A stretch of 24,000 nucleotides of DNA from Geobacterales bacterium. Lineage in GTDB: Bacteria; Desulfobacterota; Desulfuromonadia; Geobacterales; Pseudopelobacteraceae. The position numbers and the translations under genes are program-made. Below are positions 2,878 through 16,786 of the stretch, one piece after another. Under the pieces are notes generated by a model. It had not been told where the DNA came from and made no database searches. It saw only the letters and a list, made by a program, of their open reading frames with translations. The DNA lies in the NCBI GenBank assembly GCA_041738275.1, contig JBGSQD010000020.1, positions 3,441-27,440 on the forward strand, written 5' to 3'. The stretch's first letter is position 1. Every line of letters begins with the position of its first letter.

Positions 2878-3765
2878 ATGGCCCGGATACTCACGTTATA
2901 TATTCTGCTGATTGTGGTGATGCTGTTACAGGTTCCTGTCTCAGCCGGAGTTGCCGAGCAGCCGAGCAAACCGGTTATCCGTTTTGGCGTTATCCCCCGT
3001 TACAACCCGGTGGTTATGTACAAGCGCTACCAGCCGATCATGGACTACCTTACCAAAAACACCCCCTACCACTTCGAGCTGAAGATCAGCCGCGACTACC
3101 CGGAGGCGGTGCGCTATCTCAAGGACGGTGTCACCCAGATCAGCTCCCTGGGGGATGTTACCTTTACCGAGGCCAGCACACTCTATGGCGCGATCCCGAT
3201 ACTGAAACCGCTCAATCAGGACGGGGTTCCCTATTACCGCTCCGCCATAATTGTGCCGAACCATTCGCCGTTAAAATCATTGAAGGACCTCAAGGATAAG
3301 ACGTTGGTATTCGGTTCTCCACACTCCACCTCGGGAAACCTTATCCCCCGTTACATGCTGTGGAACAGCGGCATCAAACTCCAGGATCTGGCCTTGTTCA
3401 CGAACCTCAAACACCATGACGCGGTGGCCAAGGCCGTTCTGAAGGGACAATACGACGCCGGTGCGGTCAAGGATGTGATCGCCAAAAAATACATGAATTA
3501 CGGATTGAGGGTTCTGGCCTATTCAGACCCTCTTCCCTCTGTCCCGTTCGTGGTCAGAAAAGAGGCCTCCCCCGAGTTCATCAAGGCCGTAAAACAGGCC
3601 CTGCTGAAGCTTGACCGCAACAATCCCGAACACAAAAAGATCATGGCCACCTGGGACGACGAGTTCAAATACGGATTTGCGGAGGCGAACTCCGATGACT
3701 ACCGGATGATCTTCGGTATGATCCGTAACATTCCCACCGGGTGCGGTATCGGGTGTCACCGATGA
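2878..3765 (+). CDS. Secreted PhnD-type (phosphonate/oxyanion) periplasmic binding protein, ArrX/AioX-like sensor component candidate
   Basis: Signal peptide MARILTLYILLIVVMLLQVPVSA. PhnD-like core (IRFGVIP...YYRSAIIV...GSPHSTSGNLIP...). The stop TGA overlaps the kinase ATG (ATGA at 3762-3765). Unusual C-terminal CGIGCHR tail. Confidence 0.8.
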   Translation: MARILTLYILLIVVMLLQVPVSAGVAEQPSKPVIRFGVIPRYNPVVMYKRYQPIMDYLTKNTPYHFELKISRDYPEAVRYLKDGVTQISSLGDVTFTEASTLYGAIPILKPLNQDGVPYYRSAIIVPNHSPLKSLKDLKDKTLVFGSPHSTSGNLIPRYMLWNSGIKLQDLALFTNLKHHDAVAKAVLKGQYDAGAVKDVIAKKYMNYGLRVLAYSDPLPSVPFVVRKEASPEFIKAVKQALLKLDRNNPEHKKIMATWDDEFKYGFAEANSDDYRMIFGMIRNIPTGCGIGCHR

Positions 3766-5234
3766 GGTTGCGCTATCTTGCCGGGATAAAAGGGAAGTTC
3801 GTGCTGGCAGCGGCGCTGATCGTGGCCATCTCCTCCATAATCTGGGGAACCTGGGCATGGCGCAACGAAAAACGGCTATTGTATGATCGCCTGGTAAGCA
3901 ACGCCCGCAGCATGGCGATCTCGCTCAGAACGCCGATTATCAACGCCCTTGTCTACGAGGAAATGGGAGTTATTGCCGAAGGCGGGCTTCTGGACAATTT
4001 TGTGGAAGAAATCGTGGCGAACAAGGATTTCCCGACCCTGTACGCCTTTGTGACCGACGACAAGGGCAAGGTGCTGGCCCACAACCGCTACATGGAATAT
4101 GGTCTTATCTATACGGATGATCTTACCCGGCAAGCCCTGTTTGGCGATTCATTCATATCCAGGACCGTCATCGATGCTGCATCGCAGGAGCATGTTCTCG
4201 ATATTGCCATGCCGTTGCGCATCTACGGCAAGAGCTGGGGGAGCCTCCGGGTTGGTTTCTCCATGAAGCCGCTTGAACGTGAGCTCTATCTGATGGGGGT
4301 CAAGGTCGTATCCTTCACGGCAATCTTTTTCCTTGCAGGTACGGTCCTGTTCTATTTTGTCGGGCAGACAATAACGCGGCCGATTCAGAATCTTGCCGAG
4401 GCAATGTCGGAACTCGACCCCCAGACGCTGACGGTTGATCTACCTGAGGCGAGGAATGACGAGATCGGACAGTTGCAGGAAAGTTTCAGCGGGATGCTGG
4501 ATCGGTTGCGGGCAAGCGAGAGCGAGCGCCAACAGGTCTTTTCCACCCTGGTCCAGAGTGAAAAGCTGGCCACCATCGGCAAGCTGGTGGCTGGCGTGGC
4601 CCATGAGGTCAACAATCCCCTCAACGCCATATCCAGCTCCATCTATTACCTGGAAAAGGAACCGTCGGAAAGTGTCGGAAAGCAGACCGCTCTCCTTAAA
4701 CAGGGCCTGGCGCGTATCCAGAAAATAGTCCAGCAGTTGAGCGATTTCAGCCGTGCGAGCAATCTGATCATGGAAGCGGTGCCGAGCGATTTGTTCTTTC
4801 AGGAGGCAGCAACATTTGGGGCCATGGCACTCAAAAAGAGGACAGTTTTTTTCAAATCTTTCGATAACTGTATCCCGCCGGCCACCGTGCGCATGGACAA
4901 GGCCAAGATGCATCAGGTCGTCCTGAACCTCCTGATGAACGCCGCCGACGCCTGCGGTACAAAGGGCGTGGTCCGCATTTCGGCGTCGGCCGATGACACT
5001 GACTATGTCATCACGGTAACGGACAATGGCGAGGGGATACCGGAAGAGATCCAGGGGCATATCTTCGAGATTTTTTTCAGCACCAAAAAGGCGGGCAAGG
5101 GTACCGGAATGGGGCTGGCCATCTGCAAGAACATCGTAGACATGCACAACGGTACCATCAGTGTGGCAAGCCGGACAGGAGAAACGATCTTTACCATCCG
5201 GATCCCGCTGGAAAACGAGGTTCAGACGGTATGA
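3762..5234 (+). CDS. Membrane sensor histidine kinase (periplasmic domain, HAMP, HisKA, HATPase_c), ArrS/AioS-like
   Basis: ATG 3762 forms a 4-nt ATGA overlap with the upstream stop. There are two TM segments flanking a ~150-aa periplasmic domain. H-box [13 protein letters not shown]-box LLMNAADA and G-boxes DNGEGI / GTGMGLAI are present. Confidence 0.85.
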
Positions 5235-6589
5235 TCAAGATACTGATTGTGGAGGATGACCCGCTGCTCTGGCAACCGCTGCAATATGCACTGCAGGGAG
5301 AGGGGTACGTAGTGCGGGTGGCCACGGATGGAGCAGAAGCACTGGCCGCCTCCGCCGAGGAGAGCTTTGACCTGCTGCTGGAGGATCTGCATCTCCCCGA
5401 CTCCAACGGTTTGGATATCATGCGTGAGATTACCATGCGCCATCCGGCCTGCAAGGTGCTGGTCATGACCGGCTATGCCACCATAGAAAATGCCGTCGAG
5501 GCCATGAAGATCGGTGCCTTCGATTTCATAACCAAACCGTTTCATCTGGAGCTGGTCTTCCTGAAGATCAGGCGAGTGATCGAATTCCGCGATATGGCAA
5601 ATCTCGTGGAATCGGCCGAATGCAGGAAGAGGAGTGTGATGACTCGCTGTCCGGATATGCGCAGGGTCATTGAGGTTGCGGAGACGGCAGCACCAACCGG
5701 GGCAACCGTCCTTCTCATGGGAGAGAGCGGCACCGGCAAGGAGGTGTTGGCTGACTATATTCAGGGGCAGAGTGCGGTAAAAGACAGGCCTTACATCAAG
5801 GTCAACTGTGCCGCCATTCCGGATTCGCTCTTCGAAAGCGAGCTGTTCGGCGCTGACAAGGGTGCCTACACCGGATCTGTGGCAGAGCGTATCGGGTATG
5901 TGGAGTCTGCCCATGGCGGGACTCTCTTCCTGGACGAAATCGCGGATATTCCCCTGCAAGTCCAGGGGAAGCTGTTGAGAGTACTGGAAAACGGCAGCTT
6001 CTACCGGGTTGGTGGGACCAGGCAACGGAGGTCCGACTTCCGGCTGATTGCCACCAGCAGCAGGGACCTTGCCGAGGCGGTACAGATGCGAATATTCAGG
6101 GAGGACCTGTATTACCGGGTCAATGTGATCGCCCTGACGATCCCGCCGTTGCGGCAGCGGAGGGAGGACATCCCGCTGCTCACGGCCCATTTCTTGAAAA
6201 AGCTGCAACTACCTGGCTGCAATGGGTCTATCACCCTGTCGTCCCAGGTACTGGACATCCTTTCTCTCTACGGTTATCCGGGCAATGTGCGCGAGTTGAG
6301 AAACATCCTGGAACATCTCTCCATGCTCTATCCGGGTGAAAAGATCAAACCGTCCCATCTCCCGGCCCATATGAGGGACTCTGCTTATATTGGCAACCTG
6401 TTCGAGACCTTTACCGTGGAGAAACCGCTTCGGGAGGCGACCCAGGAATTCGAGGCCCGCTACATTGAGAAGGTTCTCAGGGCGGCTGGAGGGAGCAAGA
6501 CCCATGCTGCTGCCCTGCTGGGTATCTCCCGCAAGGTGCTCTGGGAAAAATTGAACCGGATTGCATTCCTCGGCGAGAACAACTGCTGA
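5231..6589 (+). CDS. Sigma54-dependent (NtrC-family) response regulator: REC, AAA+ and Fis-type HTH
   Basis: ATGA overlap with the kinase stop (5231-5234). REC domain (KILIVEDD...LLLEDLHLPDSNG), Walker A GESGTGKE, sigma54-contact loop ESELFGADKGAYTGS, C-terminal HTH (KTHAAALLGISRKVLWEKL). Confidence 0.9.
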   Translation: MIKILIVEDDPLLWQPLQYALQGEGYVVRVATDGAEALAASAEESFDLLLEDLHLPDSNGLDIMREITMRHPACKVLVMTGYATIENAVEAMKIGAFDFITKPFHLELVFLKIRRVIEFRDMANLVESAECRKRSVMTRCPDMRRVIEVAETAAPTGATVLLMGESGTGKEVLADYIQGQSAVKDRPYIKVNCAAIPDSLFESELFGADKGAYTGSVAERIGYVESAHGGTLFLDEIADIPLQVQGKLLRVLENGSFYRVGGTRQRRSDFRLIATSSRDLAEAVQMRIFREDLYYRVNVIALTIPPLRQRREDIPLLTAHFLKKLQLPGCNGSITLSSQVLDILSLYGYPGNVRELRNILEHLSMLYPGEKIKPSHLPAHMRDSAYIGNLFETFTVEKPLREATQEFEARYIEKVLRAAGGSKTHAAALLGISRKVLWEKLNRIAFLGENNC

Positions 6590-6603: not shown

Positions 6604-7524
6604 ATGAAACAAATGTATTTAACAATATTGGCGCTGCTGGTCCTGGTATGCATTTCCTGCAACCGCAAGGAACCGGTTCAGATAAGCATGAAGGCTGAGA
6701 CACCGGTCAGACAGCCGGTACCCCCTCAGGTTAAGGAGCCGTTGCGCATCGGTATGGGAGCCATGATTACCCCCAAGGAAGGCTATGTTTATTACCAACG
6801 GCTGCAGGCCTACATCGGCAAAAGGCTTGGCCGTACCGTGCAACTGGTGGACCGCGGCAACTATAAAGAGATGAATCGTCTCCTGGAAACTGGTGAGCTG
6901 GATGCGGCTTTTGTCTGTGCCGGGCCGTACGTGGAGGGGAAGGAAAAATTCGGCATGGAACTCCTGGCCATGCCGCTGGTCAAGGGGAAGCCGATTTACC
7001 GTTCATACATAATCGTTCGCAAAGATAGTCCTATCAAACAATTTGAGGATTTACGGGGCAAGGTGTTTGCATTTGCCGATCCCAAGTCCAATACCGGTAA
7101 ACTGGTGCCTACCTACATGCTTTCCAGGATGAACGAGACCCCGGACAGTTTCTTTGCCCACTATATCTTTACGTATGGCCACGATCAATCTATCCGGTCT
7201 GTGGCCGAGAGGCTGGTTGACGGGGCAGCCGTTGACAGCCTGATCTTGGACTATCTGGCTCAGAGGACGCCAGCGCTGATAAAAAATATTCGGATCATTG
7301 CCAAGTCCGGCCCTTACGGTATCCCGCCGGTGGTGGTCAGACCCGGACTCGACCCTGAACTCAAGAAGCAACTGAAAGACATTTTGTTGTCTGCGTCAGC
7401 AGATCCGGAAGGTAATGATATCCTGAAAGGGATGATGATTGACCGATTTGTTGAGGGCGATGACACGAACTATGACACCATCCGCCGGATAAACCGGTGG
7501 GTTGCCGAGTATCGAAAAGAATAA
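6604..7524 (+). CDS. Second PhnD-type periplasmic binding protein (secreted, possibly a lipoprotein), ArrX/AioX-like
   Basis: AGGA lies 7 nt upstream of the ATG. Signal sequence MKQMYLTILALLVLVCISC. PhnD-like core (LRIGMGAMITP...IYRSYIIV...ADPKSNTGKLVP...). It is only distantly similar to the first binding protein. Confidence 0.8.
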   Translation: MKQMYLTILALLVLVCISCNRKEPVQISMKAETPVRQPVPPQVKEPLRIGMGAMITPKEGYVYYQRLQAYIGKRLGRTVQLVDRGNYKEMNRLLETGELDAAFVCAGPYVEGKEKFGMELLAMPLVKGKPIYRSYIIVRKDSPIKQFEDLRGKVFAFADPKSNTGKLVPTYMLSRMNETPDSFFAHYIFTYGHDQSIRSVAERLVDGAAVDSLILDYLAQRTPALIKNIRIIAKSGPYGIPPVVVRPGLDPELKKQLKDILLSASADPEGNDILKGMMIDRFVEGDDTNYDTIRRINRWVAEYRKE

Positions 7525-7655
7525 AACCTCACCGTCAGAAATAATTAACTGATTTTGGTTGGATCCTCCTGCCAATTAATTACCCCCCCACCTTCACCAT
7601 CAGCGCCAAGAAATGCGGTCACCTTTCCAACGTATCTGTGGATAGGCTGCTCTAT

Positions 7656-7671
7656 TGGCAACATTCTTGTA
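7656..7671 (+). promoter_or_regulatory. Weak candidate sigma54 (-24/-12) promoter
   Basis: TGGCAA-N5-TTGTA has the correct GG to G spacing, but the -12 element is GT rather than GC. It is the best match in the 402-nt leader upstream of the cytochrome/arr operon, next to a sigma54 activator gene. Confidence 0.2.
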
Positions 7672-7926
7672 ATCATAATAATTAAGAGACATTTTGCCGG
7701 GTGCTATCTGAATTGACCGCCTGCATCCGGAAAGTTCGTCAAGGCAGCCGGAGGCACGAAACAAGGGCTTCGGTGCGATCGTCATCTTCCGAACGAAAAG
7801 CTTGCCGGGAAATTTGTTGACCGGAAGCCATGTCAATTGGCCGAGGGCGTTACGAAGTCGTAACAGATTCGCGAGTGCAGGCTGGAAGCCTACCCACGTA
7901 ACAACTTAATAAAGGGGATTGAAGCT

Positions 7927-9414
7927 GTGGATGAAAAAAGTAACGAGCCCGCTCGGATGGGGAAATTCAAAAAATGGCTGATTATTGTGCTGATTTTGCT
8001 GGTCGTGATCGTGGCTGGAGTGTTGGCCGTCCTTGTGGCAGCGGAAAAATACACGGGCCGGTCCGAGTTCTGCGGCTCGCAATGTCACATTATGAAGCCG
8101 AATTATGAAACATGGAAGAAGGACAAACACAGCAAACCTGACAAGGAAACCGGCAAGATCACCGGCTGTATAGACTGCCATTACAAACCAGGAGAAAAGC
8201 CAACCCCAAAAGCTAAATTCAGGGGCCTGGGCCAGCTTTTTTCCTATCTGGCCACTGGCGATAAAGAGGTACGCAAAAGACCGATAGTTAGCGATCTTAC
8301 CTGCACCACTGCCAAATGTCATCCTTTGGACAAGCTCCTGCCCAAGCCGATCGACTACAAAAAGAAGTATGTCACGGAATACAAGGAGAAACTCAAGCCG
8401 TTCACCCATAAGACCCATCTCGAAAAAAAGATCGATGGCCAGAAGCTCCAGTGCGCTTCCTGCCATCTGCACCAGTCGCGTGACAAGCATTTCGAGGTGC
8501 CGAAGGAGCTCTGTTTCATCTGTCATTTCCGAAGAACCACGGAAAACCAGGGACGTGCCAAGTGCAGCATATGTCACGAGATCCCGACAAAGGCCATGAA
8601 AGCCAAGAATGCCGAAGCAAGCAGCGAGGAAAAGGCAAAAAAACCGATAACCCATCAGGCACTGGAAAAAGGCAAGGTACCATGCAGCAGTTGCCACCTG
8701 GAGATGATTCGGGTCAGCAACAGGCTGAAGGCGGATTTCTGTCTTGAGTGCCACCATGATGCGTCACCGGAACTGCTTGCCAAGGGCGGCAACAGGACGC
8801 TGATGCATCAGGAGCATGTCAACAAACAGACAGCCCGTTGCCCCCAGTGCCATGAAACCGTGACCCACAAGAAGTACTCGTATCTTGATGCCGGGGTACA
8901 AAATTGCGATGTCTGCCATGCCAAGCCCCATACCTATACGAAGAAACTCCTGGAGGGAAAAGGTGCCCAGGGTATCAAGGAAAAATACCCGTCGCTCATG
9001 CATGCCTTTGGTGTCAACTGCGTTGCATGCCACAGCAAGGATGGCCGCGATGCCAAGGGGAACAAGGTCAAGAAGGGATCGGACAAGGCCTGTGCCGTGT
9101 GCCATAACAATGATCCTAGATACGGCAAGATGATCGTTCAGTGGGGGCAGGATATCAAGGATGCCCTGGCAGAAGCTAAAAAGGCGGAACAGGTGGCAGT
9201 GGAGGCCCTGCAACAGGCCAAGGGCAATATACCGGCCAAGACAAAGGCCAAGATGAATGCCGCCCAGGAAAACCTCAGGGTCGCCTCTGCCGGTGGCGGA
9301 GTTCACAACAAGAAATTTGCCATGTTGCTGATCGATATGGCGCAACAGGGATTCGAAGAGGTAGCTGCAGAAGTTATGGGAAATGCCCAGAAAGGAGAAA
9401 AGAATGAAAATTAA
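7927..9414 (+). CDS. Membrane-anchored multihaem c-type cytochrome (NapC/NirT/NrfH-like N-terminus), 12 haem-binding motifs
   Basis: GTG 7927 lies 8 nt after AGGGGA. One N-terminal TM helix (WLIIVLILLVVIVAGVLAVLVAA). Ten CXXCH motifs plus CGSQCH (CX3CH, nt 8071) and CTTAKCH (CX4CH, nt 8302). The first site is CH-I-M as in NrfH. Confidence 0.85.
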   Translation: MDEKSNEPARMGKFKKWLIIVLILLVVIVAGVLAVLVAAEKYTGRSEFCGSQCHIMKPNYETWKKDKHSKPDKETGKITGCIDCHYKPGEKPTPKAKFRGLGQLFSYLATGDKEVRKRPIVSDLTCTTAKCHPLDKLLPKPIDYKKKYVTEYKEKLKPFTHKTHLEKKIDGQKLQCASCHLHQSRDKHFEVPKELCFICHFRRTTENQGRAKCSICHEIPTKAMKAKNAEASSEEKAKKPITHQALEKGKVPCSSCHLEMIRVSNRLKADFCLECHHDASPELLAKGGNRTLMHQEHVNKQTARCPQCHETVTHKKYSYLDAGVQNCDVCHAKPHTYTKKLLEGKGAQGIKEKYPSLMHAFGVNCVACHSKDGRDAKGNKVKKGSDKACAVCHNNDPRYGKMIVQWGQDIKDALAEAKKAEQVAVEALQQAKGNIPAKTKAKMNAAQENLRVASAGGGVHNKKFAMLLIDMAQQGFEEVAAEVMGNAQKGEKNEN

Positions 9415-11962
9415 CAGAAGGGATTTTTTGAAGGCATCGCTGGCGGCTGGGGTAATCGTAACCCTTGACGGCCCCTTGTTTAACGCCCTGACCTTTGCCG
9501 CAGCGGAGGGAGGAGTGAAGCCGGGTAACTGGATGCCATCGACCTGTCAGGGATGCACCGCCTGGTGTCCGGTGGAATTTTTCGTTCAGGATGGCCGGAT
9601 CGCCAAGGTGCGAGGCAACCAGCTCAGCAAGGCCAACAGCGGCTTCTGCTGTCCAAGGGGCCATCTGATGGTCCAACAGGCCTATGACCCTGACCGGATC
9701 AAGGTGCCCATGAAGCGCACCAATCCAGCCAAGGGTCGCGGTATTGACCCAAAATTCGTCCCCATAACCTGGGATGAAGCGCTGGACACCATAGCCGACC
9801 AGATGCTGGCGTTGCGCAAGGCCAACGAGCCGGAAAAATTCATGTACATGCGCGGCCGCTATTCTCCCACCTCCACCGAGCTGCTTTACGGAACCCTGCC
9901 CAAGATCTACGGCACCCCCAACTACTTCTCCCACAGCGCTATCTGCGCCGAGGCCGAGAAGATGGGGCCGGGGCTTACCCAGGGTTTTTTCGGCTACCGC
10001 GACTACGACCTGGCCAAGACCACCTGTCTGGTGGTATGGGGATGTGATCCGCTCAGTTCCAACCGCCAGGTGCCCAACACCATCAACAAGTTTGGCGATA
10101 TCCTTGATCGGGGCAGTGTTATCTGTGTTGACCCACGTCTCTCAACTGCCGCTGCCAAGGCGACCGAGTGGCTTCCCATCAAGCCGGGCGAGGATGGCGC
10201 CCTGGCATCAGCTCTTGCCCACGTCATCATGACCGATGGGATGTGGAGCAAGGAATTCGTAGGCGATTTCAAGGAAGGCAAGAACCTCTTCAAGAGCGGC
10301 GCTGTCGTTGATGAGGCTGCCTTTGTGGAGAAGCAGACCCATGGTGTGGTCAAGTGGTGGAATATCGAACTGAAGGACAAGACCCCGGCCTGGGCCGCCA
10401 AGATCACCCTGATTCCGGAGGAGCAGATTATGCGTGTGGCCCGTGCCATGGGCAAGGCTGGATCAAAGACAGCTGTCTGGATGGGCCCGGGGGTTGCCAT
10501 GACTCCGCGTGGTACCTATGCCGGCATGGCGGTGTATGCCCTGAACGGTCTCCTCGGCTCCATCGAAACCGAGGGGGGGGTGTTCCAGAGTTCCAGCGCT
10601 CCGGTAGAGAAATTCCCGAAACCCGACGCGTTTATCGATGAACTGGCCAAACACCACGGCCACGGCAAAAAGATCGATGGTCGCGGCGCCAAGGACATGC
10701 CGGCCATGATGAACGCCAAGCCGGGCAGCGGCGTGGTCACCAATAACGTGGCCAACGCCCTGCTGAAGGATCCGGAATCCATCAAGGTATTCCTCAGCAC
10801 CTGGAGTAACTTTGTCTTTTCAGGCACCGGCACGCAGCGTTGGGAAAAGGCCATGGCAAAGATGCCTTTCTTTGCCCATGTGGTTACCAATGCCTCGGAG
10901 ATGACCCAGTATGCTGACATCGTCCTGCCGGCCACCTTCGGTCCGGCTGAAAAACTTTCGATCATCACCAATATGGCCAATCTGCACGGCCATATGTCGA
11001 TCCAGCAGCCGGTGATCAAGCCGCTCTGGCAGGCCAAGGCAGAGGAGACCGAGGTGATGTGGCTCCTGGCCGAGAAGCTCAAGGCCAAAGGTTTTGCCAA
11101 TCTTTATGAGTACTACGCCTCCTTCGAGGATCCTGAAAACAAGAAGAAGCCGACCAATGCCGCGGAGTTTGCCGAGATTGCCGCCAAGATCTCCAGCCAG
11201 AAGGTCTGGAACGGCAAGGAAAAGATGAAGGGGGATCAGATTGCCGGCTGGGAAGATTTCAGGAAAAAGGGCATTTACAACACCGAAACCTATAAATACA
11301 AGAAGAACTGGGGCAAGGACAACCCCGAGACCAAGAAGTTCGAAGGGCATTTCAAGACCGAGACGAAGAAGTTCGAATTCTACAGCGAGACCATGAAGAA
11401 GGGGCTTGCCGAACATGCCAAGAAGCATAATACCACCATCGATGACATCCTTAAGGTAAGCGGCTACGAGGCCCAGGGCGAACTGGCCTTTGTGCCGCAC
11501 TATGAGTCGCCCAAACGCCATGGCAGCGAAGCGGAATATCCCTTCACCTTCATTGACCACAAGTCGCGCCTCAACCGCGAAGGGCGCAGCGCCAACACCC
11601 CCTGGTACCAGGAGTTCAAGAAGGTTGATGTGGGTGACAAGAGTTGGGACGATGTGGCCAAGATCAATCCGCTGGATGCCAAAAAGCTGGGGATCAAGGA
11701 TGGCGACAAGATCCGCCTGACCTCCACCACCGGAACTATCGTCACCAAGGCCAGGTTGTGGGAGGGTGTACGACAAGGCACGGTGGCAAAGTGTTACGGC
11801 CAGGGACACTGGGCCTACGGCCGGGTGGCTGCCAAGGATTACGCCAAGGCTCAAGCACGCGGCGCCAACAATAACGAGCTTCTGGTCGACGACTATGATC
11901 GTTTGAGCGGCGCCACTGCCCGCAATGGCGGCTTTACCGGCGTCAAGATCGAGAAGGCATAG
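9404..11962 (+). CDS. arrA: Respiratory arsenate reductase catalytic subunit (Mo-bisPGD enzyme, Tat-exported)
   Basis: AGGAGA lies 6 nt before ATG 9404. Tat motif RRDFLK. CQGCTAWC-X26-CC [4Fe-4S] motif. RGRY (9851-9862) and HSAICAEAEK (9932-9961) match my recollection of Arr active-site motifs. Confidence 0.8.
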   Translation: MKINRRDFLKASLAAGVIVTLDGPLFNALTFAAAEGGVKPGNWMPSTCQGCTAWCPVEFFVQDGRIAKVRGNQLSKANSGFCCPRGHLMVQQAYDPDRIKVPMKRTNPAKGRGIDPKFVPITWDEALDTIADQMLALRKANEPEKFMYMRGRYSPTSTELLYGTLPKIYGTPNYFSHSAICAEAEKMGPGLTQGFFGYRDYDLAKTTCLVVWGCDPLSSNRQVPNTINKFGDILDRGSVICVDPRLSTAAAKATEWLPIKPGEDGALASALAHVIMTDGMWSKEFVGDFKEGKNLFKSGAVVDEAAFVEKQTHGVVKWWNIELKDKTPAWAAKITLIPEEQIMRVARAMGKAGSKTAVWMGPGVAMTPRGTYAGMAVYALNGLLGSIETEGGVFQSSSAPVEKFPKPDAFIDELAKHHGHGKKIDGRGAKDMPAMMNAKPGSGVVTNNVANALLKDPESIKVFLSTWSNFVFSGTGTQRWEKAMAKMPFFAHVVTNASEMTQYADIVLPATFGPAEKLSIITNMANLHGHMSIQQPVIKPLWQAKAEETEVMWLLAEKLKAKGFANLYEYYASFEDPENKKKPTNAAEFAEIAAKISSQKVWNGKEKMKGDQIAGWEDFRKKGIYNTETYKYKKNWGKDNPETKKFEGHFKTETKKFEFYSETMKKGLAEHAKKHNTTIDDILKVSGYEAQGELAFVPHYESPKRHGSEAEYPFTFIDHKSRLNREGRSANTPWYQEFKKVDVGDKSWDDVAKINPLDAKKLGIKDGDKIRLTSTTGTIVTKARLWEGVRQGTVAKCYGQGHWAYGRVAAKDYAKAQARGANNNELLVDDYDRLSGATARNGGFTGVKIEKA

Positions 11963-11980: not shown

Positions 11981-12811
11981 ATGTCAAAACAATATGGAAT
12001 GGTTATAGATATGCAGAAATGTGTGGGTTGCGGGGCTTGTGCCCTGGCCTGCAAGACCGAAAACAGCACCCAGGGGAGAAATCGTGGGCAAACCTTCAAC
12101 TGGGCGGACTTTCTCATCAAAGAGGATGGGAAATTCCCCAATGCCCGCACCGAAACCATTCCTACCCGGTGCAACCACTGCACCGATCCGGAATGCATCA
12201 AAGGCTGCCCGAAACCGCAGGCGTTGTACAAATCGGAAGAAGGCCTCACACTGTTCAATCACAAATACTGTATCCAGTGCAAAAAATGCCAGGAAAAATG
12301 CCCATACAGCGCCAAGGATGTGGACAAGGAACACGTTCAATACAGCGTCATCAGCTATAACGAGGTAGGTGTCGAAATCAACGAGTTTTACAAGGACAAG
12401 TCAGAGATGATCAAAGGCTGTACTGCATCCGGAGCAGAGGTGACAAAGGCTGCGGGAACAACCCCCCCCAACAGGAATGAGTATGCATTCAAGGACACCA
12501 GGAACCCGCGCGATCCAAAGGTGACCCGCGGTAAGGGGGAAATGAGGGATGTGCGATCGGGCGGATGGGTCGAAAAATGCACCTTCTGCGTCCACCGGAT
12601 CAGAAACAACGAAGAACCGTACTGTGTCGTTGCCTGTCCGGCCAAGGCCCGCATTGCGGGCGACATCAATGACCCTGCCAGTGATGTGAGCAAGCTGATC
12701 AAGAAATACAAGGCGGTACATCTGAAGAACAACAAGGGTGAGTACCTTAAAGAAGGCGAGAAGGGTACCCAGCCTAATAATTATTACATCAGGGACTATA
12801 AGAAGGTGTAA
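11981..12811 (+). CDS. arrB: Arsenate reductase 4x[4Fe-4S] electron-transfer subunit
   Basis: Four Cys groups are present: CVGCGACALAC, CNHCTDPECIKGCP, CIQCKKCQEKCP and CTFC...CVVACP. This is the typical DMSO-reductase-family beta subunit position, directly after arrA. Confidence 0.8.
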   Translation: MSKQYGMVIDMQKCVGCGACALACKTENSTQGRNRGQTFNWADFLIKEDGKFPNARTETIPTRCNHCTDPECIKGCPKPQALYKSEEGLTLFNHKYCIQCKKCQEKCPYSAKDVDKEHVQYSVISYNEVGVEINEFYKDKSEMIKGCTASGAEVTKAAGTTPPNRNEYAFKDTRNPRDPKVTRGKGEMRDVRSGGWVEKCTFCVHRIRNNEEPYCVVACPAKARIAGDINDPASDVSKLIKKYKAVHLKNNKGEYLKEGEKGTQPNNYYIRDYKKV

Positions 12812-12898: not shown

Positions 12899-13546
12899 AT
12901 GCAAAAGGATGAATTTGCCGTACAGGAGTTGATGAGAGGAGAATGCTATCGCTTTCTAGCCGCATGCTTCTATCTGCCGAAAAAGGAGCTGTTTGCCGCA
13001 GAAAACCTTCTCGCCAATCTCACTCTGAGCCTGCAGGATATCTGCCCTGACGCCGCACCCTTTTCCCGGAAAATGGAAGAGAGCTTTGCCAGGTATACAG
13101 AAGAGGAACTTGCCGTGGAATACGCACGGCTCTTCGTGGGACCTTTCGGGCTGAAGGCGCCGCCATACGGATCCATCTATCTTGACAATGACCGTACTGT
13201 CATGGGACCTTCCACCATGGAGACCATAAGCTTCTACGAGAAAGAGGGGCTTGCCAGGGACGTTGAGTTCAATGAGCTTCCGGACCATATCGCAGTGGAG
13301 CTGGAGTTCATGTATTTTCTCATTTACAAAGAAGTTGAGGCGTTGAAAAAGGGAGATTTGGAACTGGCAAAGGAGTATTTTAATAAACAGGATGATTTTT
13401 GCTCTCGCTTCCTTGGTAAATGGGTTCCAAAATTTTGCGGGGAGATTAAAGAGGGGACTGAAAACGGTTTCTACAGTGCCTTGGCAGACTGCGTTACCGC
13501 ATTTGTTCAGGCGCCGGCATTAGCACAGGTGAATTCCGTTTCGTAG
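12899..13546 (+). CDS. arrD: TorD/DmsD-family redox-enzyme maturation chaperone
   Basis: Cytoplasmic 215-aa protein with a TorD-like signature (EYARLFVGPFGLKAPPYGSIYLD ... LPDHIAVELEFM), encoded last in the Mo-enzyme operon. Confidence 0.7.
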   Translation: MQKDEFAVQELMRGECYRFLAACFYLPKKELFAAENLLANLTLSLQDICPDAAPFSRKMEESFARYTEEELAVEYARLFVGPFGLKAPPYGSIYLDNDRTVMGPSTMETISFYEKEGLARDVEFNELPDHIAVELEFMYFLIYKEVEALKKGDLELAKEYFNKQDDFCSRFLGKWVPKFCGEIKEGTENGFYSALADCVTAFVQAPALAQVNSVS

Positions 13547-13663: not shown

Positions 13664-14710
13664 CTAACTGACGAACCACCTGCGTTGAAACCAGAACGCA
13701 ACATTCACCAGCCCGATCATGACCGGCACCTCCACCAATGGGCCGATAACCGCAGCAAAGGCCGCGCCGGAATTGAGTCCAAAAACTGCAATCGCCACGG
13801 CAATAGCCAATTCAAAGTTGTTACTGGCCGCGGTAAAGGCCAGGGTAGTGGTCTTGCTGTAGTCGGCCCCCATCTTTTTACCCATCCAGAATGAAACCAG
13901 AAACATGACGATAAAGTAGATCCCCAGCGGGATGGCAATGCGCACCACGTCCAGCGGCAGCTGCACAATCAGATTACCCTTCAGGCTGAACATGACCACG
14001 ATGGTAAACAGCAGGGCAATCAGTGTCATCGGGCCGATCTTCGGCACAAACTCCCGGTGATAGCGTTCCTTGCCCATGAGCTTCACGCCGATGAAACGGG
14101 TCAGCGCCCCGGCGATGCAGGGGATGCCCAGGTAGATGAAGACGCTCTCGGCAATCTGGCGGATGCTGACATCCACGATCACCCCTTTGAGACCAACCAG
14201 CGGCGGCAGAACGGTGATGAAGAACCAGGCGTAGACGCTGTAGAACAGCACCTGGAAAATGCTGTTGAAGGCCACCAGCCCGGCGGCGTATTCGGTGTTG
14301 CCCTTGGCCAGTTCGTTCCAGACGATCACCATGGCGATACAGCGCGCCAGGCCGATCATGATCAGACCCACCATATACTCCGGTTTGTCCGGCAGCAGCA
14401 GCGCTGCCAGCACGAACATCAACACCGGCCCGATCAGCCAGTTCTGGATCAGCGAGATACCGAGGATTTTCTTGTTCTGAAAAACCTCCGGCATATCCTC
14501 GTACTTCACCTTGGCAAAGGGGGGGTACATCATCAGGATCAGGCCGACGGCGATAGGGATATTGGTGGTGCCTACCTGGAAGGAGTTGATAAAGGCTTCC
14601 GTGCCGGGGACGAAATAGCCGAGACCGACGCCCAGGGCCATGGCGGCGAAGATCCAGAGGGTCAGCCAGCGGTCGAGGAAGGAGAGTTTACGGGAAACGT
14701 GTTCGGACAT
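13664..14710 (-). CDS. acr3: Arsenite efflux permease, ACR3 family
   Basis: 348-aa polytopic membrane protein. The N-terminus [25 protein letters not shown] and overall pattern are typical of ACR3. GAGGTG lies 4 nt before the ATG. Confidence 0.9.
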
Positions 14711-14775: not shown

Positions 14776-15123
14776 TCAGGAACACCCTGCGGGTTTGTCT
14801 TTCAGGAAGGCCGCAAGCATACGGCGGTCGGATGCTGCTTCGGGAAGGTTGGCGGCATGCTGTTTGAGGATATGGAGCAGTTCATTGCAGATAACGCAGC
14901 TTTCCTGGCTGATAGAATAGTGCATCCAGACCCCCTGGCGGCGGATATCAACCCAGCAACTGCGCTTGAGGTAGGCCAGGTGGCGCGATACGGTGGATTG
15001 GGGTAGACCCAGCACGGCCATGAGGTCGCAGACGCACAGTTCCCCCTCGGCCTGCAACAGCAGGATGATGCGCAGGCGGATCGGGTCGGAAAGGGCTTTT
15101 ATGGTTTGGGCGAGATGTTTCAT
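14776..15123 (-). CDS. arsR: ArsR/SmtB-family metalloregulator (As(III)-type)
   Basis: wHTH with the ELCVCDL metalloid-binding motif and PQSTVSRHLAYLK recognition helix. Additional Cys residues (CVIC, C-terminal GCS). Located upstream of acr3. Confidence 0.9.
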   Translation of the reverse strand: MKHLAQTIKALSDPIRLRIILLLQAEGELCVCDLMAVLGLPQSTVSRHLAYLKRSCWVDIRRQGVWMHYSISQESCVICNELLHILKQHAANLPEAASDRRMLAAFLKDKPAGCS

Positions 15124-15507: not shown

Positions 15508-16473
15508 GTGGCGCGAGTGTCCACGGAACTCGCCTTTGCCGACCGGCTTGGGGCCTGCAAGGCGCGCTGGGGCATTGGGCGGATGAACTTCATGGTTCCG
15601 CCCGGGCTTTATGCCATAGGAAATCCCGGACCTGCTGATCAGGTGGTTGTTACCGCCAATTACAAGATGAGCTACGACATTGTGCGCAGCAGTTTGGCCG
15701 GGCGCAATGTCTGGCTGCTGGTGCTTGAAACCTATGGAATAAATGTCTGGTGCGCAGCGGGTAAGGGGACCTTCGGCACGGACGAGCTGGTGCGCCGGAT
15801 CGCAGCCAGCGGACTGGCGCAGGTGGTCAGCCATCGACGCCTGCTGCTGCCGATACTCGGAGCGCCCGGCGTGTCGGCACACAAGGTTGCCCGGCGCAGC
15901 GGATTCAACATCAGCTACGCCGCCATCAGGGCCGATGACCTGCCTGAATACCTGGATAACGGTATGGCCACCACACCTGATATGCGGGAGTTGACCTTCA
16001 CCTTTTACGAGCGGCTGGTGCTGATCCCGGTGGAACTGGTACTGGCGCTGAAGTCGATTGCCCTGGGGGGCTTCGGGCTTTTCCTGCTGTTTTACGTTTC
16101 GAGCACCCCCATGGCGGGACTTACCGCCTTCCTCGCCTGGTTTGGCGCTTCATTGACCGGAAATGTTGTTGGACCGCTCCTGCTTCCCTGGCTCCCTGGG
16201 CGCAGTTTTGCCGTGAAAGGGGCCGTGGCTGGATTGGCATGGGTCGCGCTGTTCTATCTGCTGGCCGGAGGATCCGGCTGGAACCGGTGGGCGACTGTTG
16301 CCGCATTTCTGGTGCTTCCTGCCGTGAGCGCCTTCTTCACACTTAATTTCACCGGCTGTTCCCCCTATACCTCCCGTTCAGGAGTGAAAAAGGAGATGGC
16401 TATCGCCCTGCCGTCCATGGGCGGCGCTATTGTCATGGGTCTTCTGATGCTGCTGGCGAGCCGTTTCCTGTAA
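15508..16473 (+). CDS. hgcA: Mercury methylation corrinoid protein HgcA (the start may lie upstream; see findings)
   Basis: The diagnostic cap-helix motif NVWCAAGK is at nt 15742-15765. The N-terminal corrinoid-binding domain is followed by a C-terminal multi-TM domain, and hgcB follows 19 nt downstream. Confidence 0.9.
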   Translation: MARVSTELAFADRLGACKARWGIGRMNFMVPPGLYAIGNPGPADQVVVTANYKMSYDIVRSSLAGRNVWLLVLETYGINVWCAAGKGTFGTDELVRRIAASGLAQVVSHRRLLLPILGAPGVSAHKVARRSGFNISYAAIRADDLPEYLDNGMATTPDMRELTFTFYERLVLIPVELVLALKSIALGGFGLFLLFYVSSTPMAGLTAFLAWFGASLTGNVVGPLLLPWLPGRSFAVKGAVAGLAWVALFYLLAGGSGWNRWATVAAFLVLPAVSAFFTLNFTGCSPYTSRSGVKKEMAIALPSMGGAIVMGLLMLLASRFL

Positions 16474-16492: not shown

Positions 16493-16786
16493 TTGAAAGG
16501 TTTCAGATATTTGAAGTCAGTAGCCACCCTGAAGCTTGATCAGGCCGTCTGCATCGGCTGCGGCAGGTGCCTGGAGGTCTGTCCGCATCAGGTATTCTCT
16601 CTGACGGGAAAAAAGGCCGCCATCACGGACCTGAACGCCTGTATGGAGTGCGGGGCCTGTGCGCTCAACTGCCCGGTCAAGGCGATTGCCGTGGACTCCG
16701 GTGTCGGTTGCGCCACAGGGCTGATCAACGAATGGTTGCAGGAGCGGAAGCTGGTTAAGGTTGGGAGCGGGAGTTGCTGTTCCTGA
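16493..16786 (+). CDS. hgcB: Mercury methylation 2[4Fe-4S] ferredoxin HgcB
   Basis: TTG start 7 nt after AGGAG. MKGFRYL... N-terminus, two CX2CX2CX3CP motifs, a conserved Cys at position 73 and a C-terminal Cys-Cys (..GSGSCCS). Confidence 0.9.
   Translation: MKGFRYLKSVATLKLDQAVCIGCGRCLEVCPHQVFSLTGKKAAITDLNACMECGACALNCPVKAIAVDSGVGCATGLINEWLQERKLVKVGSGSCCS

Follow-up and report, generated by a model that had tools for sequence, protein, structure and literature searches.

A twelve-haem membrane cytochrome encoded ahead of arrA as the probable dedicated electron donor of a periplasmic arsenate reductase in uncultured Geobacterales

Arsenate respiration mobilises arsenic in aquifers and paddy soils, where Geobacteraceae-type arrA is the form most often detected, and the locus described here raises the question of how a periplasmic arsenate respiratory reductase (ArrAB) obtains electrons from the quinone pool when no ArrC-type membrane subunit is encoded beside it. 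We analysed 24,000 nucleotides (nt) of DNA, hereafter the window, from a Geobacterales bacterium of the family Pseudopelobacteraceae (assembly GCA_041738275.1, contig JBGSQD010000020.1, positions 3,441 to 27,440 of the forward strand), in which the gene of a multihaem cytochrome c stands directly ahead of arrA. Arr anchors named in a 2025 review are ArrC and CymA only; the latter is a NapC/NirT cytochrome required for Arr in Shewanella (PMC2500031; PMC2762525). A Pfam scan of the 24 kb window found no open reading frame (ORF) of the ArrC/NrfD family, in keeping with an earlier sequence-only reading of this DNA (the original prediction) that set the system apart from CymA- or ArrC-dependent ones, and we propose that the cytochrome occupies the place that ArrC (NrfD-type) or CymA fills in other arsenate respirers. 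From synteny and homology, we consider it probable that the protein is a membrane-anchored dodecahaem cytochrome serving as dedicated quinol dehydrogenase and electron wire of ArrAB.

The enzyme that it would serve is clearly of the Arr type. ArrA matched the NCBIfam ArrA model over its full length (1018 bits, below the strict equivalog cutoff of 1600) and Shewanella ArrA (6CZ7) with an E-value of 6e-267 (891 bits), and it carried a Pfam TAT_signal match and the RGRY form of the (R/K)GRY motif. Two start codons are available to arrA, and the ATG at 9404 is more likely than the one at 9383: it opens the sequence MKINRRDFLK and lies 5 nt past an AAAGGAG (9392-9398) that is itself within the cytochrome gene. 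With this start the two genes overlap by 11 nt (cytochrome stop codon 9412-9414), and with ATG 9383 by 32 nt, so that the translational overlap noted in the original prediction was borne out, with the ribosome-binding site (RBS) of arrA inside the cytochrome gene. Genes for an iron-sulfur (FeS) subunit and a TorD-family chaperone follow arrA on the same strand (Table 1).

The arrangement extends well beyond the window. A scan of one genome per species of the Genome Taxonomy Database (GTDB) found relatives of the cytochrome in 323 genomes, and we examined 79 loci. In 22 of these the cytochrome gene was followed directly, on the same strand, by genes for ArrA (59-91% identical), ArrB and ArrD; these loci belonged to Geobacteraceae, other Desulfobacterota, Nitrospirota, Victivallales/Verrucomicrobiota and SAR324. 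Such linkage, kept across phyla, would be expected of an electron donor dedicated to Arr. Distances between cytochromes were also correlated with distances between the corresponding A subunits (r = 0.79 in 17 Arr-type loci), and none of 2000 permutations gave a value as high. At least 42 further loci (44 after ORF inspection) encoded the cytochrome followed by an FeS subunit, a second type of molybdenum (Mo) subunit and a TorD chaperone, again on one strand (r = 0.61 in 26 loci; likewise 0 of 2000 permutations), and most of the remaining loci were interrupted by contig ends. The distribution supports the proposed link to Arr, but the family also serves a non-Arr Mo enzyme and is found in a few clusters encoding NrfC, NrfD and multihaem proteins.

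In its anatomy the protein was largely as first described. The single N-terminal transmembrane (TM) helix, the 12 haem sites and the two unusual motifs CGSQCHIM (CX3CH) and CTTAKCH (CX4CH) were recovered exactly where they had been placed. One correction concerns the canonical sites, ten of which had been put after the CX4CH site: nine follow it and one, CIDCH, falls between site 1 and site 3, giving a total of ten CXXCH motifs plus one CX3CH and one CX4CH. A motif scan of the 495 amino acids (aa) found no CXXCK. The GTG start codon and its RBS are conserved in two related loci (L003 and L005). Since lysine and arginine residues sit on the N-terminal side of the TM segment, the haem domain is predicted to be periplasmic and held by a single-helix inner-membrane anchor. 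The CGSQCH motif starts nine residues past the end of this segment, and haem 1 is presumed to be the quinol-site haem. K97 and Q103, in a conserved amphipathic segment after haem 2, are candidate quinol-site residues that may correspond to NrfH K82 and to the glutamine ligand of ImcH; K97 is placed similarly to the conserved quinol-site lysine of NrfH (K82) and CymA (K91), but falls outside the region aligned by hhalign.

The head of the protein resembles NrfH over part of that protein's length. Pfam NapC/NirT (PF03264) matched residues 19-108 with 51.8 bits (cutoff 24.1), covering only positions 7-95 of the 174 in the profile, and the family profile matched Desulfovibrio vulgaris NrfH (2J7A_C) with an E-value of 6e-9. 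When aligned by hhalign against a 159-aa sequence of the same NrfH, it gave a probability of 96.5% over 49 columns that comprise the end of the TM helix, the FC..CHIM motif, H68 and haem 2. The two proteins thus share one N-terminal TM helix, haem 1 directly after it with a CH-x-M signature, a conserved histidine and haem 2; they differ in that NrfH has four haems with CXXCH at haem 1, whereas the cytochrome has 12, with CX3CH at haem 1 and CX4CH at haem 3. Past haem 2 this likeness stops, and a full NapC/NirT core of four haems is therefore not supported. Of the tetrahaem NrfH-like module originally proposed, the TM helix and the first two haems stand, and the complete module was dropped because the alignment spans just those 49 columns. 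The head also gave a weak match to the NCBIfam TorC model.

The other end of the protein resembles a different group. The best sequence match of the family profile in the Protein Data Bank was OcwA of Thermincola potens (6I5B, E = 6.8e-12), with the last five haem motifs paired, followed by OmhA (6QVM, E = 2e-9), MccA and NrfA; the conserved GGGVHNKK of the tail aligned with SNGVHNYD of OcwA, SHGIHNT of OmhA and SWGMHGF of MccA. Structure prediction, which had been suggested as a check together with profile searches, agreed. Two AlphaFold2 (AF2) models were built (43 sequences, pLDDT 73; 113 sequences, pLDDT 82, pTM 0.70), and the top 19-23 Foldseek matches of both were all NrfA, octahaem nitrite reductase or MccA, with E-values of 0.01-0.3, which are weak, as is expected of models lacking haem. 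Both the likeness to NrfA-type tails and the long helices (residues 397-430, 437-455 and 458-489, pLDDT above 90) were thereby recovered. The NrfA/MccA/OcwA superfamily is defined by a C-terminal five-haem module together with oligomerisation helices (PMC9250108), and the long helices here probably mediate oligomerisation or docking. The tail had been called haem-free: residues 394-495 indeed contain no haem motif, but the invariant H460 in GGGVHNKK is a probable ligand of a haem. OcwA, OmhA, MccA and NrfA share with the cytochrome the last five motifs and the long C-terminal helices with a G-x-H-N motif; they differ in being enzymes, either soluble or on the cell surface, in which one or two catalytic haems are five-coordinate, and they lack the membrane anchor and NrfH-type head. 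The middle section, with five haems, has no clear relative. An NrfH-like head and an NrfA/OcwA-like tail point to a graft of modules joined by this five-haem middle.

We assessed how far these features are conserved among relatives. A search of 5.8 billion protein clusters gave 258 relatives of the cytochrome, whose full-length members were 41-89% identical and all had 12 haem motifs; a conservation set of 183 distinct sequences was assembled from the cluster relatives and the 79 genomic loci. All 12 Cys/His motifs were kept across this set, a pattern far beyond chance. Both unusual motifs recur in homologues, whereas a lack of conservation would have counted against the original prediction: haem site 3 was CX4CH in 180 of the 183, with D123, C126, C131 and H132 invariant, and site 1 was CX3CH in 102 and CXXCH in 78, with CH-x-M retained in about 172. 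On a neighbour-joining tree, site 1 switched between CX3CH and CXXCH several times (the sisters L006 and L007 differ, and L014 lies within a CXXCH clade), and the CX3CH form, C-G-[TSLM]-x-C-H, resembles the sum of two CXXCH forms, CGSCH and C[TS][QK]CH. Evidently, the site tolerates either state. CX3CH and CX4CH are each among known haem-binding motifs (PMC11492766), and a CX3CH adjoining the membrane domain, though conserved here, is not unique to this family, having been reported in every ImcH homologue and in the Rhodoferax homologues of CymA (PMC6295460). Outside the motifs, alignments of 113-183 relatives showed as invariant M56, D123, W406 and ten histidines (68, 161, 164, 188, 243, 294, 297, 314, 335 and 460). 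The tail motif G456-x-G458-x-H460-N461-x-K463 was invariant too, and the tail is therefore not an inert appendage.

The invariant residues bear on whether the C-terminal module might itself be catalytic, acting on nitrite, hydroxylamine, sulfite or a metal at a five-coordinate haem, so that the protein would be a self-contained quinol:X reductase and a fused analogue of NrfH-NrfA. Its module is homologous to those of NrfA, MccA and OcwA, members of which show nitrite or NO reductase activity in vitro, and with just ten invariant non-motif histidines and M56 for 12 haems, one haem may lack a sixth ligand. However, CXXCK is absent, the NrfA Pfam model had no match on the window protein, and no NrfA or MccA catalytic residue emerged as conserved, although no residue-by-residue comparison was made; moreover, the strict linkage is to Mo enzymes that already supply a catalytic site. 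We regard a catalytic role of the module as quite unlikely.

A further search, exhaustive over 1.84 billion cluster representatives, returned 206 clusters at E<=1e-30. Many of these were larger proteins containing the entire dodecahaem module, which thus appears to be reused in larger multihaem proteins. In distant relatives of 1300-1440 aa (P0222, P0241, P0248, P0262 and P0292; 1321-1441 aa) the module of about 460 residues was C-terminal, and in others of 600-800 aa it was N-terminal. The window cytochrome and ArrA had no exact match in a collection of 15 billion proteins; the closest cytochrome was 89% identical and lay on a short Logan contig, and the closest ArrA genes (88-91% identical) came from metagenome-assembled genomes (MAGs) of uncultured Geobacteraceae and Desulfuromonadaceae. 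Public labels of the relatives were only 'NapC/NirT family cytochrome c', 'cytochrome c3 family protein' or hypothetical.

Occurrence of the module in multidomain cytochromes of 600-1400 aa among many distant relatives is one of the observations that would suit a more general role, in which the cytochrome is a periplasmic or inner-membrane electron hub like ImcH or CymA, delivers to several acceptors including Fe(III) conduits and lies near arr by chance. Its C-terminal module has its nearest counterparts in OcwA and OmhA, both Fe(III) reductases of the cell surface, four Nitrospirota loci place it beside NrfCD and multihaem cytochromes, and its 12 haems are more than docking to ArrB requires. 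Against such a hub stand at least 64 of the 79 loci, in which the cytochrome is immediately upstream of a Mo/FeS enzyme with its TorD chaperone, the co-divergence of cytochrome and A subunit, the gene overlap in the window and the shared arsenic-type set of regulators. We judge the hub improbable, and a donor dedicated to its neighbouring Mo enzyme remains the reading that we prefer; the strict Mo-enzyme linkage fits it better than it fits this or either of the other two alternatives considered here.

The second and more widespread partner enzyme was found in the Desulfocapsa/Desulfobulbaceae group, Desulfolithobacter, many Alphaproteobacteria, Nitrospinota and the lucinid symbionts Thiodiazotropha and Sedimenticola. 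Its Mo subunit is about 841 aa long and 25-33% identical to ArrA, with YGRH or YGRA at the position of RGRY. Among solved structures the nearest were PsrA (176 bits) and ArrA (158 bits), the best NCBIfam match was PhsA, below threshold, and the RefSeq name is only 'molybdopterin-dependent oxidoreductase'. An identity as Arx or Ttr was tried and not supported: the ArrA RGRY motif and the ArxA motif are both missing, the best NCBIfam match is the sub-threshold one to PhsA, and the enzyme was left unassigned. Cultured Desulfolithobacter dissulfuricans GF1 (L080; AP024233.1, 761574-778983) carries the second-type cluster beside arsR-arsP-arsR, and another such cluster (L053) lies beside acr3 and arsR. 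We tentatively entertain a wider scheme, which we think less likely than not to hold, in which a portable quinol dehydrogenase cassette with NrfH head and NrfA tail has taken over from NrfD-type anchors on repeated occasions and assembles with periplasmic FeS/Mo enzymes into a fixed supercomplex, the second partner being a new oxyanion oxidoreductase, possibly for arsenic, that is neither Arr nor Arx.

For the window system, the proposed route starts from the anatomy, homology, synteny and gene overlap observed above. The N-terminal helix would hold the cytochrome in the inner membrane with its haems in the periplasm, as sequence and homology suggest. By analogy with NrfH, CymA and ImcH, the TM helix, haem 1 (CX3CH-x-M) and the helix bearing conserved K97 and Q103 would together make up an NrfH-type site at which menaquinol is oxidised, and release of the protons to the periplasm would make this step electroneutral. 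The NapC/NirT/NrfH family is generally described as electroneutral (ImcH preprint), and the cytochrome would accordingly be expected to recycle menaquinone without itself building a proton gradient. Electrons would then run through the 12 haems into the C-terminal NrfA/OcwA-type five-haem module, pass by presumed contact into ArrB, the FeS subunit, and reach the Mo site of ArrA, where As(V) would be reduced. This last step is suggested by the structure of the predicted cyt-arrA-arrB-arrD operon, in which the cytochrome gene comes first, overlapping arrA, and the four genes would be co-transcribed.

Electron flow could in principle run the other way, with an ArrAB-type enzyme oxidising arsenite and the cytochrome reducing quinone or feeding other periplasmic acceptors. 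The window enzyme, however, has the ArrA (R/K)GRY motif and not the ArxA motif. It scores 891 bits against a respiratory reductase of Shewanella, and its nearest relatives are MAGs of anaerobic Geobacteraceae. What makes the reverse direction conceivable is that the Arr/Arx group is described as bidirectional, ArxA reportedly both oxidising arsenite and reducing arsenate (PMC7327174), that in Fe(II) oxidisers CymA has been proposed to work as a quinone reductase (PMC6295460), and that the second partner type is present in sulfur-oxidising symbionts. We consider reversed flow very unlikely, and continue with the cytochrome as a quinol-oxidising donor to ArrAB.

Several points nevertheless weigh against this assignment. 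Every functional step rests on homology and gene order. No alignment between cytochrome and NrfH was obtained by hhalign past haem 2, and a small clade of relatives lacks the CH-x-M signature at haem 1. In four Nitrospirota loci (L016, L024, L037 and L038) the cytochrome is paired with NrfC, NrfD and multihaem cytochromes, so that a separate quinol-interacting subunit exists there. The 12 haems greatly exceed what transfer from quinol to ArrB needs (CymA has four), and there may be other or additional partners; tail-mediated oligomerisation or service to further partners are possible reasons for so many haems. Finally, the arsenic island of Geobacter sp. OR-1, a cultured arsenate respirer, is given as arsR-arrA-arrB with no cytochrome listed, and Arr can therefore work without such a gene in the family's own lineage. 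As to the make-up of the four Nitrospirota loci, they encode an NrfC-like FeS protein, an NrfD-family protein and two to three multihaem cytochromes with NrfA/c554 Pfam matches, and no Mo subunit was found adjacent.

Set beside known systems, the proposed wiring combines familiar parts. CymA of Shewanella sp. ANA-3 is likewise a NapC/NirT-type membrane cytochrome joining menaquinol to periplasmic ArrAB, but it has four haems, is shared by many reductases and has its gene apart from arr, whereas the present protein is dodecahaem and is encoded by the first gene of the arr operon. ArrC presumably has the same role, as the quinol-oxidising membrane anchor of ArrAB, but is an unrelated, cofactor-free polytopic membrane protein of the NrfD/PsrC type. 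The torCAD and dorCAD operons follow the same logic, encoding first a NapC/NirT-type cytochrome, next a Mo enzyme and last a TorD chaperone, and TorC/DorC too has an extra C-terminal haem domain and one dedicated enzyme; TorC differs in having five haems and no FeS subunit partner, whereas the additional module of the present protein contains eight haems and resembles NrfA/OcwA. By its published description, ImcH of Geobacter sulfurreducens is a quinol oxidase of the inner membrane that resembles NapC/NirT and carries an atypical CX3CH next to its membrane domain (PMC6295460), but has three TM helices and seven haems and serves extracellular electron transfer. A NapC/NirT cytochrome feeding a periplasmic Mo enzyme is thus already known, as is CymA feeding Arr; what is new is the way the cytochrome is built, its dedicated place in the operon and how widely the family occurs. 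No description of the family was found in the searchable literature, although earlier mention is possible in subscription papers on arsenate respiration in Geobacter or Anaeromyxobacter.

Table 1. Positions of the features discussed (window coordinates, except in the last row)
Feature	Position (nt)	Strand	Basis or remark
PhnD-like binding protein	2878-3765	+	Pfam
Histidine kinase	3741-5234	+	Pfam
Sigma54 response regulator	5231-6589	+	Pfam
Second PhnD-like binding protein	6604-7524	+	Pfam
Candidate sigma54 -24/-12 element, TTGGCAACATTCTTGTAATCA	7655-7677	+	Intergenic stretch with the highest conservation across the window, L003, L004 and L005
Perfect palindrome GTTACG-N4-CGTAAC in leader	7849-7864	.	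Single occurrence in the window
Dodecahaem membrane cytochrome c	7927-9414	+	GTG start; ORF of 495 aa
N-terminal TM anchor, W17-A39	7975-8043	+	Hydrophobic segment of 23 residues; AF2 helix 11-43; aligns with NrfH TM helix
Haem site 1, CGSQCH-I-M (CX3CH-x-M), residues 49-56	8071-8094	+	Aligns with NrfH CTSCHIM
Haem site 2, CIDCH, residues 81-85	8167-8181	+	C81, C84 and H85 invariant; aligned to NrfH CNDCH
Amphipathic conserved segment, AKFRGLGQLFSYL	8212-8250	+	K97 and Q103 each at least 90% conserved
Haem site 3, CTTAKCH (CX4CH), residues 126-132	8302-8322	+	CX4CH in 180/183 relatives
Haem sites 4-12, nine CXXCH, C176 to H393	8452-9105	+	The final five, starting at C272, make up the NrfA/OcwA-type C-terminal module
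C-terminal helical tail	9115-9402	+	Includes invariant GGGVHNKK (9292-9315); AF2 pLDDT above 90
arrA, Tat-exported Mo-bisPGD arsenate reductase catalytic subunit	9404-11962	+	Alternative ATG at 9383
arrB, FeS subunit	11981-12811	+	Best NCBIfam match ArrB; Pfam Fer4_11
arrD, TorD-family chaperone	12899-13546	+	Pfam Nitrate_red_del, E = 2e-33
acr3	13664-14710	-	Pfam SBF; convergent with arr genes; 90% identity to L001 neighbour
arsR	14776-15123	-	Pfam HTH_5; 76% identity to L001 neighbour
Second-type loci L018, L021-L023, L025-L029, L032, L033, L042-L079, L080	L061: 9520-13640 (example); L080: 9537-13719	.	Coordinates within each locus

Upstream of the cytochrome gene, a set of a PhnD-like periplasmic binding protein, a kinase and a sigma54 regulator adjoins the cytochrome in most related loci, and this set probably drives the cytochrome operon. 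In the window, a methyl-accepting chemotaxis protein (271-2760) flanks the kinase/sigma54 pair together with the two PhnD-like proteins, and in the related locus L024 (3088-4788) both binding domains are fused in one protein of 566 aa. The candidate sigma54 element has the -24/-12 spacing, but GT and not GC at -12. A sigma54 consensus search alone gave nothing above chance, and the site was retained only because it is the best-conserved intergenic block; a correctly spaced -24/-12 element was not found in L002 or L081, loci without the second binding-protein gene. The palindrome recurs in other loci (L002 at 5218 and 5349, L003 at 7769, L004 at 1159, L081 at 5132 and 5263, L024 at 9481 and L037 at 9177), in intergenic DNA beside the cytochrome gene. 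It lies there either about 75-125 nt ahead of the start codon or in the gap that separates the cytochrome gene from the FeS gene, and a regulator-binding site and a leader hairpin are both candidate roles. The sigma54 candidate lies upstream of the palindrome, which would be an unusual order if the palindrome were an activator site.

Downstream, acr3 and arsR complete the arsenic island. Two ORFs divergent from arsR, at 15508-16473 (+) and 16493-16786 (+), are a probable hgcAB mercury-methylation pair. The first encodes a CdhD-like domain with GINVWCAAGKG and a TM-rich C-terminal half, and the second a 97-aa 2x[4Fe-4S] ferredoxin with CCS at its end. GINVWCAAGKG would be the cap-helix motif of HgcA, and the hgcAB naming follows the HgcA/HgcB literature.

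On this evidence the cytochrome would offer a third, operon-encoded solution to the wiring of ArrAB to the quinone pool, beside ArrC and CymA, and one that spans uncultured Geobacteraceae, other Desulfobacterota, Nitrospirota, Verrucomicrobiota and SAR324. Its gene could serve to mark complete arsenate respiratory chains in genomes. The joining of an NrfH head to an NrfA/OcwA tail would be a case of natural module grafting in multihaem cytochromes, and the relatives provide a natural set of CX3CH/CXXCH variants at the presumed quinol-site haem. Through its second partner, the cassette also draws attention to an uncharacterised clade of Mo enzymes in marine symbionts and sulfur disproportionators, of which Desulfolithobacter dissulfuricans GF1 is in culture.

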